Virus record (IMG/VR): IMGVR_UViG_3300025832_000005
Span: 62,001 to 126,000 of that record
Direction: 5' to 3' (one strand)
Source of the DNA: an uncultured virus (IMG/VR IMGVR_UViG_3300025832_000005)
Taxonomy: Duplodnaviria; Heunggongvirae; Uroviricota; Caudoviricetes
DNA length: 64,000 bases
A program made the position numbers and the translations under genes. The notes beneath the pieces are model-generated. The model had not been told where the DNA came from. It was given only the letters and a program-made list of their open reading frames with translations, and did no database searches. The first letter of the stretch is position 1. The number at the start of each line of letters is the position of its first letter. Of the stretch, positions 3,624 to 44,490 are shown piece after piece.

Positions 3624-4319
3624 TTATTGTTCCTGATTAGGCTTTTGGGCAGCCAACCATTTTTGCGCACGCCGATCGTTAGGCGGCGTTGTTAAAAACT
3701 TTTGTACGTTTTTGAATACTTGATTAAAGTTCTGTTCACGAGCTGGGTTTTCTTGACCCCCGCTGTTATCAACTACATGGAAATCAGCGGCGCCAAAAAC
3801 TTGCTGAAACTGCATTAGATTTTGTTGAACTTGGTTCCACATTTTGGAAACCATTTCAGCTGGAATACTTCTAGCACGTTGCTTATTACGTTCTTGTGCT
3901 ACTTCTTCACTTGTGTTTACATACACCATCATTGTTTCGTATCCCAATGACTTTAGCGCATTACTATCTTTTTGTACTTTAGCAACATCTTTGCCTGTAC
4001 CATCAATAACAAGACCTAGACGACCATCTAAATATTGAGTACGTCTTTTCTGTGTAAGCTCTTTGGCTTTATCACGTACTTCTTGACCTGCTTGACTACC
4101 AACAACTTCTGGATCTCCAAGATCCATATCTTGTTTCTGCGCCAAATATTCATAAATCTCATCACTATTAACAGATTTAAGGCCGCTAGATCCAAGCATC
4201 TTTCTAGCCACATAAGACTTTCCAGAACCTGGGCCACCGGCCATAAACACTGCTTTAAAAATATGAGGGTCGTTTGGACCTTCTTCAAGTGGTTGATTTA
4301 TTACTTCGTTAATTTTCAT
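3624..4319 (-). CDS. P-loop kinase (AAA_33/zeta-toxin/PNK-like)
   Basis: AVFMAGGPGSGKS Walker A, VNSD, LVIDGTG, ERNKQRAR lid; late box 5 nt upstream. Confidence 0.8.
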   Translation of the reverse strand: MKINEVINQPLEEGPNDPHIFKAVFMAGGPGSGKSYVARKMLGSSGLKSVNSDEIYEYLAQKQDMDLGDPEVVGSQAGQEVRDKAKELTQKRRTQYLDGRLGLVIDGTGKDVAKVQKDSNALKSLGYETMMVYVNTSEEVAQERNKQRARSIPAEMVSKMWNQVQQNLMQFQQVFGAADFHVVDNSGGQENPAREQNFNQVFKNVQKFLTTPPNDRRAQKWLAAQKPNQEQ

Positions 4320-19885: not shown

Positions 19886-20182
19886 TTATGACATTAATAA
19901 TGTTGCTAGTAATGTTAGTACACCAGCAAGAACTGTACCACCAGTTCCCATCATTATTTTATTTGTTGTGGCATTTGCTTTAATCATTTCTTCACGCATT
20001 TTAGAGAATTCACGGATGCCTTCTTCTCTCATGGAAGTCACACTTTTTTCAATATTATTAAGGCGGGTATCAATATTGTTAACTTTTTCTTCCAAGACAC
20101 GATACCTCTCAGCACACAGGTCAACGTGAGCTTCTAAATTCTGTTTCTCTAACTGGGTTGTCCCAATTGTAGCTATAGACAT
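19886..20182 (-). CDS. Coiled-coil protein with C-terminal membrane anchor (XhlA-like topology)
   Basis: LEAHVDLCAERY..coiled coil..hydrophobic C-terminus; start reassigned to ATG 20182. Confidence 0.6.
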   Translation of the reverse strand: MSIATIGTTQLEKQNLEAHVDLCAERYRVLEEKVNNIDTRLNNIEKSVTSMREEGIREFSKMREEMIKANATTNKIMMGTGGTVLAGVLTLLATLLMS

Positions 20183-20321
20183 AATTCTTCTCAACTGTGT
20201 CTTCAGCACATCGTTGTGCCTTGTTAACAGTAGCCTTTTATGTAGCCTTTTGATATCGGAGGCTTGTGGCGAACTCCGTAGTCTTGTGCCTTAGTTTTTT
20301 CTTAATACTATTTATTGATGT

Positions 20322-21528: not shown

Positions 21529-22602
21529 TTATAAGTTTGGCGTCCAGCGATGTCTTGGTACAAGTTTAATTTTATCTCTACCTACTACATATCCTTCGCC
21601 ACCACTTTCACCTTTTGTAGTTGCTGTTACATCAGCTGGAGCATTGTCTAGCTGATCAATAATATTATTTTTTACTGTCATAATTTGTACAACTAATCCT
21701 AGTATAGCATTTAATCCATTACTGTCACTAGCCATTAGTTTTGCTTGTTGTCCAGCACTTACTTTACTAGTTTTTAACCAGTCGAAAAAACCACTTTGTA
21801 ATTGCTTTAATTTACCTTGTTTTACCATTTGATTTACATATGTATAAATGATATTACCTTTATTACTAAGACCCTGTTCAGGTGTTAACCAACCGTCAAT
21901 TGCTTGAGCATTAGCATTAGTTGCTTTTATAATGTCTTCTACACTGCTAATATCTACACTAGCTTGATGTGGTACATATGTTTGACCCATAACTACAACT
22001 TCATTAGTATTAATTCTTTTTGTATCTTTAATAGGAGTGCCAGTTTTGTCGCCAAACTCTCCGTATATACTGTGTGCCGCAATACCAATACTACTTGCGC
22101 CAACTCTTTTACCAAGATCACTGTTAGCGTCTATAGTATATAGAACACTATTTGGTTCAAATTGATATGTGTCGTTGTTTGATACGTATGGTTTGCTTGG
22201 TGAGTATAATAAATCACCATATATAAAGCCACGCAGATCGTTTGGTGTATTACGTTGCATGATGTCAAATACATCACCCATGTTATTAGCAAAGTCCTGT
22301 CTCCAGTCTTCGCCTTTACCAGTACTCATAACAAATGATTTTAATTCATCACTGCTAGTAGTTTTATTTTTACCCCAGCCATTTTTACCAGTTAGTACAA
22401 ACGTTCCGTCTGCTTCTCTGCCCCAATAGATAGTAGGATTGCCGTCCCATTTAATGGCTACATCATTTGAATCTTGACCAAGTCGTTGTAGTATACTTGC
22501 CGCTCTAAGAGCACCAGCACTGCCTTCAGCAAATACTAGATCTTCTAAGTGCTGGTATTCACGCCCTACTTTAGCTTCCGTTAAAAACTGGTTTGCTCGC
22601 AT
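21529..22602 (-). CDS. Ligase-like nucleotidyltransferase (RNA-ligase/DUF6267-like)
   Basis: HLEDLV, KWDG (motif I), YGDLLY, EGYVV (motif IV), IKLV (motif V). Confidence 0.65.
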   Translation of the reverse strand: MRANQFLTEAKVGREYQHLEDLVFAEGSAGALRAASILQRLGQDSNDVAIKWDGNPTIYWGREADGTFVLTGKNGWGKNKTTSSDELKSFVMSTGKGEDWRQDFANNMGDVFDIMQRNTPNDLRGFIYGDLLYSPSKPYVSNNDTYQFEPNSVLYTIDANSDLGKRVGASSIGIAAHSIYGEFGDKTGTPIKDTKRINTNEVVVMGQTYVPHQASVDISSVEDIIKATNANAQAIDGWLTPEQGLSNKGNIIYTYVNQMVKQGKLKQLQSGFFDWLKTSKVSAGQQAKLMASDSNGLNAILGLVVQIMTVKNNIIDQLDNAPADVTATTKGESGGEGYVVGRDKIKLVPRHRWTPNL

Positions 22603-23390
22603 TAGCTTTGTTCTTTCCAATTTGGATCGTTAGCTCTGATATTTGCTAATAGCTCTTCGCCTTCTTTACCCAATGCTGCTACAATAGCTTCCACACTGCC
22701 CATGTCTTGTTTGTGGGCATTAGGGCCTAATAATAATTTAGCAATCTCATCAATGTCACTTGTAATAAATCCATCTGGATCTTTTTTACCGTTTGGTAAA
22801 CGTTTAAACAATCCAACATAGTTACTCCATAACATGCCTTTTCCTTTAGCAATAATACTAAGCATCTGTTGCTTGTTAACACCTTTAAACGGCGATCCTT
22901 TTGGAATATTATGTGTATGGAATTGTGCCGCATTAGCAGCATTTGGTACTACCATAATGTCTACTTGGTGTGTGTTATCACCAATTGGTGTTTCTACGTG
23001 TACACTAGTACCACTTTGTCCTGTGTTAAACCCTGCTAAGTCAAATACTTGACGTAGCTTTTTACGGATGTCAGCATCTTTAGCGTCTTCCATATTAAAA
23101 TGTTGTTTTAGCTGATCTACATCTACGATCATATCCAAGTCACCACTTACTTTACCAGGTGTTGGAGTTGCTCCACTACCAATTGGTATAGCAGTACTAC
23201 CAGTTTTTGCCAGTACTGAATTAATTGATTTCATAATGCCAGGTATTAGTTTGTGATCAAAGCCCACACTGTCAGGGAATACATTACCGCCTTCTCTAAG
23301 ATGTAAATCTTCTTGTCTTAATCTTTTGATGCGGCTTCCACGACGGATTTTGCGTTTGCTCATTCCGCCTAGTATGTCTTTAATCTTCAC
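22602..23390 (-). CDS. Pol-beta-fold nucleotidyltransferase-like protein
   Basis: IGSG..SGDLDMIVD..HQVDIM signature. Confidence 0.7.
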   Translation of the reverse strand: MKIKDILGGMSKRKIRRGSRIKRLRQEDLHLREGGNVFPDSVGFDHKLIPGIMKSINSVLAKTGSTAIPIGSGATPTPGKVSGDLDMIVDVDQLKQHFNMEDAKDADIRKKLRQVFDLAGFNTGQSGTSVHVETPIGDNTHQVDIMVVPNAANAAQFHTHNIPKGSPFKGVNKQQMLSIIAKGKGMLWSNYVGLFKRLPNGKKDPDGFITSDIDEIAKLLLGPNAHKQDMGSVEAIVAALGKEGEELLANIRANDPNWKEQS

Positions 23391-23623
23391 AGCTTTGATA
23401 CCCCTCTTTTAAACTTCCGAGGATCCTTGGTGCGAATTGAATTAATTAATCTTTTATTCAAATCCGCCGCAGTTTCATTATCAAATGTCTCATTAATTAA
23501 TTCAATTAAGTTAATTGCCGTAGCAATTACTTGTTCAGCATTTGCTTCAACAAGTTGCCGTCTGTCACGCTTTGGTGACATAGAATTAATTTCTTCTAAA
23601 ATAGATCTCGTTTTACGTTTCAT
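23387..23623 (-). CDS. Hypothetical late protein
   Basis: 78 aa; TATAAATA 8 nt upstream. Confidence 0.65.
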   Translation of the reverse strand: MKRKTRSILEEINSMSPKRDRRQLVEANAEQVIATAINLIELINETFDNETAADLNKRLINSIRTKDPRKFKRGVSKL

Positions 23624-23645
23624 ATCAATACTATTTATAAATATT

Positions 23646-23836
23646 GTTGTTAAAACATTGGTGGATAGTACTTATAGCAACTTTGCATTTCCTGATCGTG
23701 AACTTAGGATCCATAGGCAATAAGAATTAATACAGCTATGGGATGCGGGCAACAATTCAGGCTAATATCTTCGCCCGTTGTTCGTACATCATATTATAGA
23801 TACATATAAGGTCAACGGCATCAATGTTTTAACAAC
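23646..23836 (+). ncRNA. Candidate structured ncRNA (about 190 nt)
   Basis: 18-bp terminal stem (23646-23663 with 23819-23836, one G-U pair on the + strand), internal hairpins, TATAAATA at 23636-23643. Confidence 0.55.
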
Positions 23837-25221
23837 TATTCCCTTCGTTTAAGTAAATTTTGTAATCTTGCGGCGTTTTCCACTGCGGTATTATCAGGCT
23901 GTGCTGACTCAGTACCAGCAGGGCTAACAGTTGCTTTATTCTTTAAGCTCTGATAGATGCTTGCTACTTGTCCTTCTTCACCTTGTTCATCTTCATCCAA
24001 GTCTGTAATACGCAGTGTATTCATATCATAGCCCAAGTCTAGTTTAGATCCAACACCACTACTACTACGTGTTTTCATAAACTGTATCTGTACTCTGCCA
24101 CGTTCACGCATTGCTCTTGAGCTAAAGATACCAATTAGGTTGTCTGCTGTATTAATCTTACTAATACCACCAGCAATGTGACTGTGATCAAACTCTACTT
24201 CATCAACAGCACCACGATTCAACTGAGACGCTGTAACAAACAATATGTTAAGCTCAATAGCTAAGTTACGTAGTTCTTCACTTACATACTTGTCTTTAAT
24301 AAACTGATCGCTTGGATTAACTTTAACGCTAACAGGCATCATAAGATCCAAATAGTCCACAAACAATCCATCAATTTTAATGTCGTTTTGTATCTGATAT
24401 TCTTTAATATATGCCTTGATATCATTAATAGTTGCGCCGTTAGGCATTTGTATCATTTGTAGTACGCCTGCTTTTTTGCTTGCCATACGTACTTTAAGTG
24501 CTGTGTCATCAGCATTGCGCATAACATCTTTAGTACTCTGGTTAGTAACCATAGCATCAATACGCATACTACATAGTTCTTCACTAAGTTCTAAACTTAC
24601 ATACACTACGTTCTTGCCAGCTAAACTCCAGTTGAGTGCCATGTTTTGCATAAACAAACTCTTACCACTACCGGATCCGCCAGCAAAGATGTTTAGTTCG
24701 CCTGGATTAAATCCACCATATAGTATCTTGTCAAGGCTTTCCCATCCAGTACTGTTTTGTCCACGATTGTCTTTAATTGCTTGTATACGTCCTGCTGGAT
24801 CGTCCCAGTAGTTAAGCCCAAAGTCTTTTGCTAGTCCAATACCAACAGCATCTTTAATTAGTTGCTCAACACTTCCGTATTCATGTCGTTCTAGTTTATC
24901 AGCACTTTCCAGGATAGCACCCTCAAGTGCCTTGTGTCTACAAAACTTTTCGTATTCATCCATAAACCATTTTTTATGGTCATCAGTAATCTTTGCTCTT
25001 ACATCATCAAATTCAATTCTTACTTTGGCTTTAATTTGTTCATGTGTTGGTAAATCGCCGTAGCCATCTACATGTTCTTGTATAAAGTCCATAACAGGCT
25101 GATACTTACGAACAAAGTATTTGCTGTTTGTAATCGCATTGCAGCGTACAAACAAATCTTTGTCAGCAAGTAAAAACTCTAGATATAACTTTTGTAAATC
25201 TTCTGTGTACTCTTCACTCAT
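23836..25221 (-). CDS. Replicative DnaB-like helicase (gp41-like)
   Basis: STGW..LD, AGGSGSGKS, VSLELSE, FVDYLDLM, TASQLNR, KTR. Confidence 0.92.
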   Translation of the reverse strand: MSEEYTEDLQKLYLEFLLADKDLFVRCNAITNSKYFVRKYQPVMDFIQEHVDGYGDLPTHEQIKAKVRIEFDDVRAKITDDHKKWFMDEYEKFCRHKALEGAILESADKLERHEYGSVEQLIKDAVGIGLAKDFGLNYWDDPAGRIQAIKDNRGQNSTGWESLDKILYGGFNPGELNIFAGGSGSGKSLFMQNMALNWSLAGKNVVYVSLELSEELCSMRIDAMVTNQSTKDVMRNADDTALKVRMASKKAGVLQMIQMPNGATINDIKAYIKEYQIQNDIKIDGLFVDYLDLMMPVSVKVNPSDQFIKDKYVSEELRNLAIELNILFVTASQLNRGAVDEVEFDHSHIAGGISKINTADNLIGIFSSRAMRERGRVQIQFMKTRSSSGVGSKLDLGYDMNTLRITDLDEDEQGEEGQVASIYQSLKNKATVSPAGTESAQPDNTAVENAARLQNLLKRRE

Positions 25222-37648: not shown

Positions 37649-37723
37649 TGGCTGGGTCGATAGGACTCGAACCTATACTCTACGCTACCAAAAAGCGGTG
37701 CATTACCATTATGCTACGACCCA
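37649..37723 (-). tRNA. tRNA-Gln(TTG)
   Basis: Cloverleaf, anticodon loop TT-TTG-GT, GTTCGA T-loop, encoded CCA. Confidence 0.9.
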
Positions 37724-37728
37724 TTACT

Positions 37729-37803
37729 TGGCAGTCCCTAGGGGAATTGAACCCCTCTTTCCAGGTTGAAAACCTGGCGTCCTAACCGATAGACGAAGGG
37801 ACC
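37729..37803 (-). tRNA. tRNA-Glu(TTC)
   Basis: CCAGG-TTTTCAA-CCTGG anticodon arm, encoded CCA. Confidence 0.92.
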
Positions 37804-37807
37804 ATTA

Positions 37808-37892
37808 TGGTGCGGATGGAGAGACTCGAACTCTCACGCCGTGAAGCACAGGTACCTAAAACCTGCGTGTCTACCGATTCCACCACATCCGC
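37808..37892 (-). tRNA. tRNA-Leu(TAG)
   Basis: CAGGT-TTTAGGT-ACCTG, long variable arm, CCA. Confidence 0.92.
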
Positions 37893-37895
37893 TTA

Positions 37896-37936
37896 TGGTG
37901 CCTGTTGAGAGACTTGAACTCCCGACCGGCTTATTA
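37896..37936 (-). pseudogene. Orphan 3' half of a tRNA (Thr-like)
   Basis: TAATAAGCCGGTCGGGAGTTCAAGTCTCTCAACAGGCACCA: T-arm, acceptor strand and CCA, with no 5' half attached. Confidence 0.75.
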
Positions 37937-38011
37937 TGGTGCTGATGGAGAGAATCGAACTCCCAATCTACTGATTACAAATCAGTTGCCTTACCATTGG
38001 GCCACATCAGC
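37937..38011 (-). tRNA. tRNA-Thr(TGT)
   Basis: ACTGA-TTTGTAA-TCAGT anticodon arm, CCA. Confidence 0.92.
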
Positions 38012-38518
38012 TTAGAAACTTTGTCCTTCATAATAGCGTTTCATTCTACTATGTCGTCCGTTTCCTTTATTCTTACCCTTGTATGTTAATGTCTGACTAT
38101 GACAGTTAGGACATAACAAACTTAGGTTATCTTCAGCGTTATTTTCTGAATTGCCATCTTTGTGTTCTAATTCTAACACAATTGGCTTTTGGTTCCACTC
38201 AGTAATTCCGCATTGCCAGCAACCACTTACTTGTTCTGCCAAGTACCGTTTAACTGGTCCTTTGCTTAGTTTACCTGTTTCCTTCCAAACACGAACGTAT
38301 TCGTTATGTTGGAAACTATGTTGGCACTCTAAATTACAAAATTTATTCTTAGTCGAGTGTGACCATTTATTTTCATTTCCACAGTGCAGACATATAAATG
38401 TTTTTATAGGTCCTGCTCTGCTAACGCTATATCTACTTCCTTCTTTATGTGCTACCATATGTGCGTTCAACGCTCTTTGGGTAGCATATTCTTTATTACA
38501 TTCACCGCACTTAAACAT
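38012..38518 (-). CDS. HNH homing-type endonuclease with N-terminal zinc fingers
   Basis: CGEC..H...H, CLHC..FC..C, CWQCG..LELEHKDG..NN..NL.LLCPNCH; stop codon abuts tRNA-Thr. Confidence 0.88.
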   Translation of the reverse strand: MFKCGECNKEYATQRALNAHMVAHKEGSRYSVSRAGPIKTFICLHCGNENKWSHSTKNKFCNLECQHSFQHNEYVRVWKETGKLSKGPVKRYLAEQVSGCWQCGITEWNQKPIVLELEHKDGNSENNAEDNLSLLCPNCHSQTLTYKGKNKGNGRHSRMKRYYEGQSF

Positions 38519-38586
38519 CAGTGGCTCCTTATTTGCTCAAAAGTATTTATGCTTTTAAGCAAAATTTGCTCTATTAGTTGAGCAAG

Positions 38587-38608
38587 CTACCAACTGAGCT
38601 ATTGCGGC
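38587..38608 (-). pseudogene. Orphan 5' tRNA fragment (Thr-like, through the D-loop)
   Basis: GCCGCAATAGCTCAGTTGGTAG followed by unrelated sequence. Confidence 0.7.
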
Positions 38609-38609
38609 G

Positions 38610-38684
38610 TTATCTTTTTACTCTACAAATTGGACAAAAGTCGTTGTGATCCAATTCAAATTTACATTCAGGACATTTATTCAT
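38610..38684 (-). CDS. 24-aa zinc-ribbon peptide
   Basis: MNKCPECKFELDHNDFCPICRVKR; ATAAGTA box 5 nt upstream. Confidence 0.5.
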   Translation of the reverse strand: MNKCPECKFELDHNDFCPICRVKR

Positions 38685-38705
38685 ATTAATACTTATCCTG
38701 TATCT

Positions 38706-38796
38706 TGGCGGGCAGCCAGGGATTCGAACCCTGGGAACGCTATTAACGTTCGTCCGCTTAGTAGGCGGGTGCTTTAAACCACTCAGCCAACTGCCC
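38706..38796 (-). tRNA. tRNA-Ser with anticodon ACT
   Basis: CCGC-CTACTAA-GCGG anticodon arm, long variable arm, G73, CCA. Confidence 0.85.
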
Positions 38797-39187
38797 GTAA
38801 ACCGTCCCAACCTCCAAGTATTGCATGTTCTTCTGCATGACAGTTTGCACATAACAATGCGCACTTATCTACTTCTTCTAAAAAGACCTGTAAGTTTTTA
38901 GATCTTCTAAACGCTTTTGGGTCCTTCTTAGTCGGGTCTTTGTGATGAAACTGTAATGCTCCTGTGTAGTTGTTATATCCACACTTTTCGCAACAGCCAC
39001 CTTTATGTTTAATCGCTTGCAACCTAACATCTTTTTGTGTTTGGTGCGTTAATTTAATGTGACAACTTTTACACCGGATCTTCTGACCACCATAAAAGTT
39101 GTCTGGATTAGTTTCGTTACAAGTCTTACACAAGTATGGCTTTACCACACCTTTCTTACCTGAACTGCCTATGCCTTCTAAGTTCAT
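38783..39187 (-). CDS. HNH endonuclease
   Basis: CKTC..CKSC, GGCCEKCGY..ALQFHH.DP..K..E.DKC.LLCANCHAEEH; ORF ends inside tRNA-Ser. Confidence 0.88.
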   Translation of the reverse strand: MNLEGIGSSGKKGVVKPYLCKTCNETNPDNFYGGQKIRCKSCHIKLTHQTQKDVRLQAIKHKGGCCEKCGYNNYTGALQFHHKDPTKKDPKAFRRSKNLQVFLEEVDKCALLCANCHAEEHAILGGWDGLRAVG

Positions 39188-39230
39188 CTTACTCTCCTAT
39201 ACTGTTATTTAGCATATTAAAGTAAATTTA

Positions 39231-39255
39231 CTTTAAGCCACTCAGCCACCTGTCC
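39231..39255 (-). pseudogene. Orphan 5' fragment of tRNA-Ser
   Basis: GGACAGGTGGCTGAGTGGCTTAAAG, similar to the 5' end of the intact tRNA-Ser (GGGCAGTTGGCTGAGTGGTTTAAAG). Confidence 0.8.
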
Positions 39256-39261
39256 GTATTC

Positions 39262-39337
39262 TGGCTCCCTCTGCTGGGCTCGAACCAGCGACAAATTGAT
39301 TAACAGTCAATTGCTCTACCAACTGAGCTAAGAGGGA
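39262..39337 (-). tRNA. tRNA-Asn(GTT)
   Basis: ATTGA-CTGTTAA-TCAAT, G73, CCA. Confidence 0.93.
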
Positions 39338-39340
39338 ATA

Positions 39341-39448
39341 AAGACTGCTTATTGCTAACACACCTATCAACACTTCCTCCCTCACCTAGCCTTATTGACA
39401 TTGCTAGTTACGTTTGGTTGCTACTTGTGTGTAGCAATAAGCAGTCTT
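39341..39448 (-). ncRNA. Candidate structured RNA within the tRNA operon
   Basis: 17-bp perfect closing stem aagactgcttattgcta/tagcaataagcagtctt with an internal hairpin. Confidence 0.55.
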
Positions 39449-39457
39449 CCTTATTCT

Positions 39458-39525
39458 TGGTGCCCTCTCCCGGACTCGAACCGGGACGCTGTGAAGACTG
39501 AGGATCCCCATTCTCCATCACTAGG
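39458..39525 (-). pseudogene. Chimeric tRNA lacking an anticodon arm: 5' part like the CAT tRNA, 3' part of a tRNA-Leu
   Basis: CCTAGTGATGGAGAATGGGGATCCTCAG joined to TCTTCACAGCGTCCCGGTTCGAGTCCGGGAGAGGGCACCA; the two acceptor strands do not pair. Confidence 0.75.
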
Positions 39526-39534
39526 GTTATTCTT

Positions 39535-39628
39535 TGGTGCGGGCGGTGGGACTTGAACCCACAACGTGATCATTAATCTGTGAAGGATTTTAAGTCCTTT
39601 GCGTTTCAACCAATTTCGCCACGCCCGC
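39535..39628 (-). tRNA. tRNA-Leu(TAA)
   Basis: AAGGA-CTTAAAA-TCCTT, long variable arm, CCA. Confidence 0.92.
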
Positions 39629-39760
39629 TTATTAACTTTTTAACTCTGGAATAGTTGCCCCCTTTTGGAGCAAGTCCAACTTCTAACAACGTTTGTCTTA
39701 TATTACTATGATTATCGTATGCTGTCAATAACTCATTGTCAGAAACTTTAACTTAAACAA

Positions 39761-39784
39761 TGTCTACCATTCCACCAAGAGGGC
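39761..39784 (-). pseudogene. Orphan 5' fragment of tRNA-Leu
   Basis: GCCCTCTTGGTGGAATGGTAGACA; GCCCTCT pairs 7/7 with AGAGGGC of the 3' half ending at 39458. Confidence 0.8.
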
Positions 39785-39799
39785 ACTTTATTCTAATTA

Positions 39800-39990
39800 C
39801 TGTGTATGTGTGGGAGGTTCTCAACGCTTTCGCTCCGCCTATCCACACTAACGACAAACACTTGCCGGCATACTTGCATCGAGCCTTTTGTTGTGATTGC
39901 GACATCACTTCTCATCATATGGGACTTGCTAACCCATACTAGCTGAGGAGCAACCTCAACACGTCTCTTGGTACTCCTAAGGAGTACTAT
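39800..39990 (-). ncRNA. Candidate multi-hairpin ncRNA
   Basis: GC-richer gap with at least four hairpins (gtactcc/ggagtac, tgagg/cctca, tatggg/cccata, gtgat/atcac); no convincing ORF. Confidence 0.4.
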
Positions 39991-40075
39991 TGGTCCTAGC
40001 GGTTGGAATCGAACCAACTCGGTCATTACAACAAAGCGTTATGAGCGCTGAGGCTCCCCATTTGCCATCACTAGG
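39991..40075 (-). tRNA. Atypical tRNA with anticodon CAT and a long variable region
   Basis: 7-bp acceptor CCTAGTG/CGCTAGG, AGCG-CTCATAA-CGCT, about 16-nt variable region, GTTGG-TTCGATT-CCAAC, A73-CCA; position 8 is A. Confidence 0.7.
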
Positions 40076-40082
40076 TGTATTC

Positions 40083-40159
40083 TGGCGGTCCCTGCAGGAT
40101 TCGAACCTGCAACCTACTGCTTAGAAGGCAGTTGATCTATCCAGTTGATCTAAGGAACC
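40083..40159 (-). tRNA. tRNA-Arg(TCT)
   Basis: ACTGC-CTTCTAA-GCAGT, CCA. Confidence 0.92.
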
Positions 40160-40406
40160 TTAATTCTATTGTTTTTAGTTTTAACATGATAGCATTAACT
40201 GAGTCTGGTGTCAAGCCTGGAATAACATCATCATTGTCATTTATGCCAGGTAGTTGTACAAACATATTGTCGTCAAAAACTGCCGCTTCATACTTTGCTT
40301 TTCCAGGCAAAAGTACTACACTAAGCTGATACTTTCCAAACTGCTGTTTAGCTTGAAAGTGACCAGGACCAACTTCATTAAACTTGAGTGTATTGAAAAG
40401 TTGCAT
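40137..40406 (-). CDS. Hypothetical early protein
   Basis: SD GGAGG before ATG 40406; reads into the 5' end of tRNA-Arg. Confidence 0.6.
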   Translation of the reverse strand: MQLFNTLKFNEVGPGHFQAKQQFGKYQLSVVLLPGKAKYEAAVFDDNMFVQLPGINDNDDVIPGLTPDSVNAIMLKLKTIELRFLRSTG

Positions 40407-43357: not shown

Positions 43358-44374
43358 TTATGCTCTTGAGCGGATTGCCGCTAAGATGTCCTGCGCACTT
43401 GGCTTGTCACCTTCAGCTGCTACTGGAGCAGGTGTTGGTGCAGGCGTTGGTGCCGCTTCTGCTACTGGAGCAGGTGTTGGCGTAGGTGCTGTTGCTACTG
43501 GTTGTGGCGTTGGCGTTGCTACTGGAGCAGGTGCCGCTGCTGGCGCACTACCATTATTTGGTGCGCTGTTTGATGTATCAATTTGTACACCTGATGGGCG
43601 ATAAAAATTACCCCAACGTGATGGATCATACATTTTACCATCAACACTTGCTTCAAACATTTCAGCAATTACTGCCAACTCTGCTTCGCTTGGTTGCTTT
43701 GGTAGATAATCATTTAGATTATACAATCCATGTGTTTCGATAGCTGCACGTTCATTGCTATCTAAGCTACGTTCTCTACGAGCCCAACCACTAGTTGAGT
43801 AATCTGCGTATTGACCTTTTGTTGTCTTAGTAAGACGGAAGTCTGTACCACCTTCGTAATCTGTAGGAAGTTCTTCAAAGTCACTACTCATTAGAGCACC
43901 TTTAATAATATTGAAGATACTTGGATTAATTACAAATCTACGAATTGGATTTTCTGGAGACTCTTCTTCCAAAGAGTTTTCAGTTACAAAACCTTGGAAT
44001 ACGTATGAACGTTTCTTCCAATACTTACGACCCATGTCTTCTAGACTTGGATCCTTAAACCACTGACGTACCTCTGATAGTACTGGACAGCTTCCAACTG
44101 GTCCCCACATTTCATTACATGGAACGTTTACAACACAACGACGACTGTCTGGTTGTCCTTCGATTCCTTGAAACTCCATGCGAATCATTTGACGCTCACG
44201 CCAAAAGAAAGTGTTTCCTGTATCTCCATCTGGAAGGAAACGAATTACACTTGTTGAATTTTCTGGGATGTTCCAAAACGGATAGATTGCGTTATCGCCT
44301 CCGCCGCTTTGCTTGCCTGGACCGCTGTTGTCCTGTGCTTGTAGTTTTGCTTTAATTTCTGCCAATGATGCCAT
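43358..44374 (-). CDS. Single-stranded DNA-binding protein (gp32-like)
   Basis: IRFLP, CPV, RKYWKKRSY, P..Y..G.DF.L.K....ADYS.S; Pro/Ala linker. Confidence 0.85.
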   Translation of the reverse strand: MASLAEIKAKLQAQDNSGPGKQSGGGDNAIYPFWNIPENSTSVIRFLPDGDTGNTFFWRERQMIRMEFQGIEGQPDSRRCVVNVPCNEMWGPVGSCPVLSEVRQWFKDPSLEDMGRKYWKKRSYVFQGFVTENSLEEESPENPIRRFVINPSIFNIIKGALMSSDFEELPTDYEGGTDFRLTKTTKGQYADYSTSGWARRERSLDSNERAAIETHGLYNLNDYLPKQPSEAELAVIAEMFEASVDGKMYDPSRWGNFYRPSGVQIDTSNSAPNNGSAPAAAPAPVATPTPQPVATAPTPTPAPVAEAAPTPAPTPAPVAAEGDKPSAQDILAAIRSRA

Positions 44375-44490
44375 AGTTATTCTCCTAATATGTTTGCCTA
44401 TGTGTGTTGCTCTAAGAGCAACTTTTGCCTAAGTTTGCCTAAGTGACAATGTACTTATTATCACTAATATATAATACATGCGTTAGTTTG

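Follow-up and report, generated by a model that had tools for sequence, protein, structure and literature searches.

Few structured RNAs encoded by phages are known to us, and most of them have no known role. GOLLD and ROOL, for example, are phage-borne structured non-coding RNAs of unknown function. The RNA gene described here resembles them in being a stand-alone folded RNA of a large phage, with no coding frame, no known partner and an accessory-gene setting, but it is much smaller than either. It shares these same features with the four non-coding RNAs reported in phage PA5oct (PMC7318152), although those RNAs lie at a different place in the genome. No sequence or structure match links it to any of these RNAs, and it has no match in Rfam. 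Specifically, our covariance model of the new RNA (R1) gave no match at E<=10 against the ncRNA001-004 regions of PA5oct.

The window analyzed here, that is, the whole stretch of 64,000 nucleotides, consists of bases 62001-126000 of a 133-kb IMG/VR virus record, for which CheckV gives a completeness of 37%. By protein matches, the record falls among the PA5oct / RaK2 / Atu_ph07-like jumbo phages. The element lies in a 212-nt gap between two genes that both lie on the minus strand (positions here and below are those of the window):

23836..25221, - strand: DnaB-like replicative helicase gene (phrog_19, E 7.2e-73); its stop codon touches the 3' foot of helix P1 of the RNA

23387..23623, - strand: gene for a 78-aa protein annotated as 'virion structural protein' (phrog_11854, E 7.9e-19), transcribed away from the RNA

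A sequence-only reading of this stretch had proposed an unannotated + strand RNA of about 190 nt, closed by an 18-bp stem with a single G-U pair. The stem is present as claimed: 23646-23663 pairs with 23819-23836, and the G-U pair, G23661-U23821, would become a C-A mismatch on the minus strand. Only these two sites in the window match the 14-nt core of the stem, against 0.12 matches expected. Folding of the + strand gave -55 kcal/mol with a z-score of -4.43; the minus strand had z = -2.69. Covariation among relatives and tests of strand, described below, support a structured RNA of about 185 nt, and we regard it as very probably a real non-coding RNA gene on the + strand and a member of a new family. 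The family has 54 distinct sequences of 168-224 nt, and R1 scores the window at 196.9 bits (23622-23843, + strand). The predicted features of the RNA are as follows:

23649..23833, + strand: structured non-coding RNA, 185 nt in the window, with its ends placed from the promoter spacing and the base of P1

23649-23663 / 23819-23833, + strand: helix P1, extendable to 23646 / 23836

23671-75 / 23806-10, + strand: helix P2, CUUAU / AUAAG, from the consensus model

23693-96 with 23788-91 and 23700-03 with 23780-83, + strand: helix P3, UGAU with AUCA and GAAC with GUUC

23711-16 / 23736-41, + strand: helix P4, with an invariant AAUAAGA in its loop

23745-50 / 23773-78, + strand: helix P5, with AGGCU in its loop

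We assembled an alignment of 45 distinct sequences (A2), from which RNAalifold, unaided, recovered P1, P2 (CUUAU/AUAAG), P4 (CCAUWG/CWAUGG) and P5 (GCGGGC/GCCCGU). P3 did not come from RNAalifold; it was added by comparing the subgroups side by side. The resulting five-helix model contains 36 pairs, and 94.6% of the cells are paired over the 45 sequences. In 16 of the 36 pairs (96 cells) both sides had changed, a result that none of 500 shuffles matched. As a control, we slid the partners by 1-3 columns, and pairing fell to 35-52%. Changes on both sides are present in P1, P3, P4 and P5; P2 lies beyond the reach of this check because it never varies. P3 is the weakest helix, with 83% of its cells paired, and is maintained through UGGU/ACCA in one relative (L150) and through other changes in two more (L121, L020). 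Since A2 divides into three main subgroups, some of the covariation signal represents few events; mutual information across columns is likewise dominated by these subgroups. Many of the unpaired bases in the junctions are invariant in A2.

The three inner hairpins of the sequence-only reading can all be found in the sequence, and two of them are conserved as P4 (CCATAG 23711-16 with CTATGG 23736-41) and P5 (GCGGGC 23745-50 with GCCCGT 23773-78). The third, TCCTGA 23690-95 with TTAGGA 23704-09, is not kept throughout the family. It competes with P3, and in a direct comparison it is paired in 207 of 324 cells (64%) versus 377 of 432 (87%) for P3. This hairpin may be an alternative fold in the subgroup to which the window belongs.

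In the consensus helices of A2, there are 98 G-U cells when the sequences are read on the + strand and 28 when they are read on the minus strand, and 21 of those 28 fall at a single terminal position where there is probably no pairing. The P1 pair 34-290, for example, occurs as A-U and as G-U equally often, in 22 of the 45 sequences each. Threading each sequence through the consensus fold gave a lower energy on the + strand in 53 of 54 cases, by a mean of 8 kcal/mol. Unconstrained minimum free energies do not separate the strands: the + strand is lower in only 21 of the 54 sequences, and the minus strand is lower by a mean of 1.7 kcal/mol. We take the G-U bias in co-varying helices to be a better measure of strand than free folding energy. 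This bias and the consensus-fold energies point to the + strand, and we conclude that the RNA is read from it, antisense to its neighbors.

The palindrome TATTTATAAATA at 23632-23643, pointed out earlier, does place a late box, TATAAATA, on each strand:

23636..23643, + strand: TATAAATA box, putative late-type promoter of the RNA, from sequence and conservation in the family

23632..23639, - strand: TATAAATA box, putative late promoter of the 78-aa gene, 8 nt before its ATG and overlapping the + strand box by 4 bases

The core of the + strand box, TAAATA, is conserved in the family together with TTGTT. In nearly all of the 45 sequences of A2, a block (T/G)TAAATATTGTT lies 5-6 nt ahead of the first paired G, and relatives carry (A/G)(T/G)TAAATA at the same 5-6 nt spacing. 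The block TAAATATTGTT 5' of P1 is kept even where the box on the opposite strand has changed or moved (L015, L023, L033). In the window the first paired G is G23649, which forms a G-C pair in 45 of 45 sequences and lies 6 nt past the last A of TATAAATA. Late promoters of T4 have the same spacing between the TATAAATA box and the start. The box is thereby centered near -10 of the start that we infer, where a late transcription unit would have it. In other words, the bidirectional late box of the sequence-only reading is borne out as a predicted arrangement, with the + strand TAAATA box back to back with that of the 78-aa gene and with both the box and its spacing conserved.

The placement of the boxes in the window points the same way. 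The window contains nine copies of TATAAATA, eight of them on the minus strand and directly upstream of minus-strand gene starts; six of these eight genes are annotated as structural (virion proteins, tail tube, head-tail adaptor). The total is near chance by an estimate from base composition, and it is the placement that is telling. We consider it probable that the RNA has a late-type promoter of its own. The likeness to the late genes of T4, which have a TATAAATA promoter, lies in a box 6 nt before the inferred start that also precedes genes annotated as structural; the locus is unlike them in that the product would be an RNA and that the box stands back to back with one on the opposite strand. 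Neither gp55 nor gp33, the late sigma factor and co-activator of T4, was named in the PHROG and Pfam tables, which span part of the genome. We found no terminator-like site downstream of the element, and the sequence past P1 is not conserved in A2. For these two reasons we place the 3' end at the foot of P1, to which the transcript would be trimmed.

Twelve RNA-labelled sequencing runs contain part of the window. We examined four marine metatranscriptome runs, each from a different study, as contigs. Contigs cover the element in three of the four studies (X1, 22600-24297; X4, 23671-23843; X5, 23697-23863); those of X7 do not. In X4 and X5 the depth on the element is no higher than on its flanks. 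Contigs of this kind indicate presence in RNA libraries only, without strand, ends or level, and may include DNA carried over into the library.

We searched for relatives of the locus in three ways. The helicase protein identified 80 related viral contigs, of which 33 contain the element by BLASTN at 70-100% identity; a profile search of the same contigs brought the count up to 36 of 80. Wherever genes had been inserted, they lay between the helicase gene and the element and never between the element and the 78-aa gene, and we therefore ran the next search with the 78-aa protein. The RNA lies directly upstream in all 80 of the loci kept, out of 178 relatives found. The third search used a gapped RNA-motif pattern alone, independent of both proteins. 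Among the 80 loci fetched, 39 held the RNA according to the covariance model, at 124-264 bits; the remaining 41 had matched by chance. In each of these 39 loci the 78-aa gene abuts the RNA, so that this gene is its constant neighbor. The helicase gene is an inconstant one, since several relatives have inserts between it and the RNA; examples are a radical SAM/SPASM gene (L006, L025) and an MCD/GNAT-like gene (L042), both on the same strand as the helicase gene. Among the genome-contig pattern matches listed, none of 80 loci matched R1 at E<=0.01, and hence no cellular homologue appeared there.

The same junction was compared in phages that have no RNA at this place. Among cultured relatives, the distance from the helicase gene to the homologue of the 78-aa gene is 35 nt in Vibrio phage 2.275.O and 40 nt in PA5oct, and in Phosso a single small CDS lies between them. 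In uncultured relatives without the RNA, the slot holds divergently read genes for lipase class 3 (lipase_3), a DUF1353 protein or small unknown proteins, or genes read with the helicase gene, namely radical SAM/SPASM and MCD/GNAT-like ones. Because relatives have short gaps or protein genes at this position, the RNA is one of several alternative accessory cargoes. TAAATA precedes seven of the eight slot protein genes read. The helicase/78-aa junction can thus be seen as a cargo slot for protein or RNA genes behind the same kind of promoter. Nothing ties the function of the RNA to the 78-aa gene.

The slot is hypervariable in nine of the relatives (L006, L025, L034, L042, L059, L064, L066, L077 and L081).

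The sequence-only reading had also drawn attention to two words at or in the loops of the hairpins and to their repetition in the leaders of other genes. We located these words in the RNA, TAGGCAA at 23714-20 and CAGGCTAA at 23758-65. Their fates in the family differ: AGGCU is near-invariant, whereas TAGGCAA is confined to the window's own subgroup. The repetition in leaders is real, in that the 133-kb record contains clusters of AGGC[A/T] in only two places, both in leaders and in the sense of the message, with 3 and 4 words respectively:

43358-44374, - strand: SSB gene, by annotation

44375-44450, - strand: SSB leader, in which a UAGGCAAA-like word occurs three times about one or two hairpins directly ahead of the ribosome site

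20210-20320, - strand: leader of gene 19886-20209, 110-140 nt, with AAGGCWAC four times, behind a AATAAATAG box

The pattern in the SSB leader is kept in 5 of the 6 relatives read (L165-L168, L170), down to 52% identity of the SSB protein, and it has the appearance of a translational operator conserved across this group of jumbo phages. The product of gene 19886-20209 combines a coiled coil with a membrane helix at its C-terminus, and the true start of this gene is likely the ATG at 20181. The RNA itself carries AGGC[A/U] one to four times, mostly in the interior of P5, where insertions add further GGCU words. In two divergent short forms (L150, L147), AGGUU replaces the AGGCU of P5 and a single AGGC[A/U] occurs elsewhere.

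We propose that the RNA gene is accessory cargo in the variable slot between the helicase and 78-aa genes. It would be transcribed from the + strand, opposite to all its neighbors, from the TAAATA late-type box, with a start at or near G23649, the first base of P1. The mature 3' end would probably arise by trimming back to the foot of P1, and this helix of 15-18 bp would protect both ends of the RNA. Late in infection the RNA would act in trans by binding a protein, both through the invariant core of the junction (P2, the AAUAAGA loop of P4 and the AUAGA..GAUAAGG strand) and through the one to four exposed AGGC[A/U] words of the expandable P5 domain, and its effect would come from holding or titrating this protein, not from pairing with a target. 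A general protein-binding role in trans is the most likely mechanism, and the AGGCU words in the loop fit it, though on whether the RNA does act in this way we lean neither toward yes nor toward no. Taken as a whole, that is, as an accessory-slot RNA gene with its own + strand late promoter and a protein-binding role in trans, in a marine jumbo-phage clade related to PA5oct and RaK2, the proposal seems to us evenly poised between right and wrong.

A narrower version of protein binding would make the late RNA a specific decoy that titrates a repressor of the WAGGC(A/U) words in the SSB and 19886-20209 leaders and so lifts or retunes repression. In favor of this, AGGC[A/T] words cluster nowhere in the 133 kb except in these two leaders, five of the six relatives read retain the SSB operator, and the RNA bears the same core one to four times in the RNA sense. 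In addition, AUAGGCAAU, present in the window's subgroup, is compatible with the operator form, and the operators ACUUAGGC / ACAUAGGC have a counterpart of similar sequence in the junction word ACUUAGGA / ACAUAGGA. The word that the RNA conserves, however, is AGGCU and not the AGGCA of the leaders, and UAGGCAA occurs in one subgroup only, with half of the word inside the P4 stem. By our own estimate 0.21 words are expected per 185 nt, so that the two words in the window are weak evidence. The operators also persist in phages in which no full-length match to R1 was found in records that are 25-66% complete (L167, L168, L170), which weakens the link between the RNA and the SSB operator. A sponge would leave the invariant P2, P4 loop and junction strands unexplained, and the 133 kb, about 37% of the genome, yielded no RNA-binding protein family. 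The CsrB-like sponge that had been suggested is possible, if thinly so. The RNA does resemble the CsrB/RsmZ sponges in having a repeated short purine-rich word, predicted to be unpaired, whose copy number varies through insertions in one domain, but the word is AGGCU rather than GGA, there are 1-4 copies rather than many and no GGA array, and the RNA has a large invariant core outside the repeats. We judge the specific decoy to be unlikely. More doubtful again is a role in cis, in which + strand transcription would run into the helicase gene and silence it late as antisense, with the fold doing nothing but stabilizing the 5' end. The lack of a terminator after the element, the convergence of the RNA on the helicase gene and the metatranscriptome contig X1, which spans both, would all agree with this. 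The gene downstream on the + strand varies, however, from helicase in the window to radical SAM/SPASM (L006, L025) and MCD/GNAT-like (L042) in relatives; the sequence after P1 is not conserved, and a mere stabilizer needs no invariant junction bases.

A 6S-like decoy for RNA polymerase, the other suggestion made from the sequence, would account for a length of about 185 nt, a long closing helix and probably late expression, and 6S RNA (SsrS) is indeed similar in size and has its ends paired in a long helix. Against this, P3, P4 and P5 meet at a three-way junction, which makes the fold a branched one and not a rod with a central bubble; in addition, the scan against Rfam returned no 6S match, either at the gathering score over the whole window or at E<=10 for the element. 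We therefore find a 6S-like role very improbable. To a similarly small degree we credit a structure that belongs to a minus-strand transcript, whether it serves the helicase message as a 3' end or processing signal or the 78-aa gene as a leader. All the neighbors are on that strand, unconstrained folding is as good or better there, and its fold has a z-score of -2.69; yet 98 G-U cells would turn into C-A mismatches, and for 53 of 54 sequences the minus strand gives the worse consensus fold. Late messages of the 78-aa gene would also leave the element out, since their box is located downstream of it. Least probable of all is an element that acts as DNA, such as a replication origin, a cruciform or a miniature transposon with terminal inverted repeats. 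It would explain 18-bp inverted ends near primase and helicase genes and a contig, L010, that folds back exactly at the repeat. The element is nevertheless single-copy in the 133-kb record and the window, its arms and inner hairpins co-vary without keeping any one sequence, and strand-biased G-U pairs make sense only for RNA. Of all these readings, that of a protein-binding RNA acting in trans is the one we favor.

We compared the element with other known classes as well. A cmscan of 23560-23900 at E<=10 returned a single chance-level match, to a snoRNA model; Rfam gave no match to the element for Y RNA / YrlA, phi29 pRNA, tmRNA or tRNA-like RNAs, and ARAGORN found no tRNA or tmRNA in 23400-24000. 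The TROVE family is absent from the Pfam tables, which cover 8 ORFs of the window and 110 outside it. None of the CsrA, Hfq, RegA and Ro families was found in the same set, with PHROGs alone for the other ORFs of the window and a record that represents about 37% of the genome. A small protein was rejected as the product: the reading frame from the near-invariant AUG of CUUAUGGCA runs for anywhere from 5 to 55 aa, the AUG is AUA in 4 of 54 sequences, and indels of 1 nt shift the frame. A miniature inverted-repeat transposon was likewise set aside, given the single copy in the record and window and the co-varying arms. RNAduplex runs of the whole RNA against 193 start regions produced long meaningless duplexes and were dropped.

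The locus thus represents a new RNA family for which the comparative support is strong, in the form of 54 distinct sequences, five helices, a conserved box and a fixed genomic address, and the group that carries it consists of abundant yet uncultured marine jumbo phages. The RNA is compact and well bounded and has an expandable motif domain, which makes it well suited to structural study and to a search for its partner. If the specific decoy, unlikely as we hold it, were true, this would be the first sponge RNA of a phage that counters translational operators of replication genes, and the RNA, a rigid scaffold displaying the leader words on its expandable domain, would release or retime the messages for SSB and the coiled-coil membrane protein late in infection.

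Several smaller observations were made along the way. In addition to the helices of the model, we noted an isolated co-varying pair at A2 columns 97/168 (G23707-C23758 in the window), which is G-C in 46 sequences, A-U in 4 (three lineages) and G-U in 2, and is mismatched in none. The pair connects the base just ahead of AGGCU in P5 with the junction word UUAGGAU, and it may be a tertiary contact or a coincidence; we left it out of the model because no helix surrounds it.

On five incomplete records without the RNA, R1 produced short weak matches only. The best weak match, G008:C1:100322-100388 (L171; 22.4 bits, 67 nt), lies in the SSB leader of that phage (G008), at a point where a hairpin comes immediately after a TAAATA box. 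Its resemblance to R1 may go no further than a promoter and a stem.

In contig L010, positions 3950-4280 run from the 3' end of the helicase gene through the inverted element into the reverse complement of the helicase gene. This fold-back at the 18-bp inverted repeat is most likely an artifact of assembly or amplification.

Finally, the phage carries many host-like genes, including those for a ClpB-like ATPase, DnaJ, ClpP, ClpS, Hsp20, PhoH and a bilin reductase, and further ones for CsgG/CsgF, a CHASE2-cyclase and a class II aminoacyl-tRNA-synthetase-like protein (in the window and the rest of the record, G000, L178-L182). At 270-803 on the minus strand, the window encodes a protein of a 'translation initiation factor' family (phrog_9787), and at 37650-40160, also on the minus strand, it contains eight tRNA genes, among which lie HNH endonuclease genes at 38012-38518 and 38783-39187.
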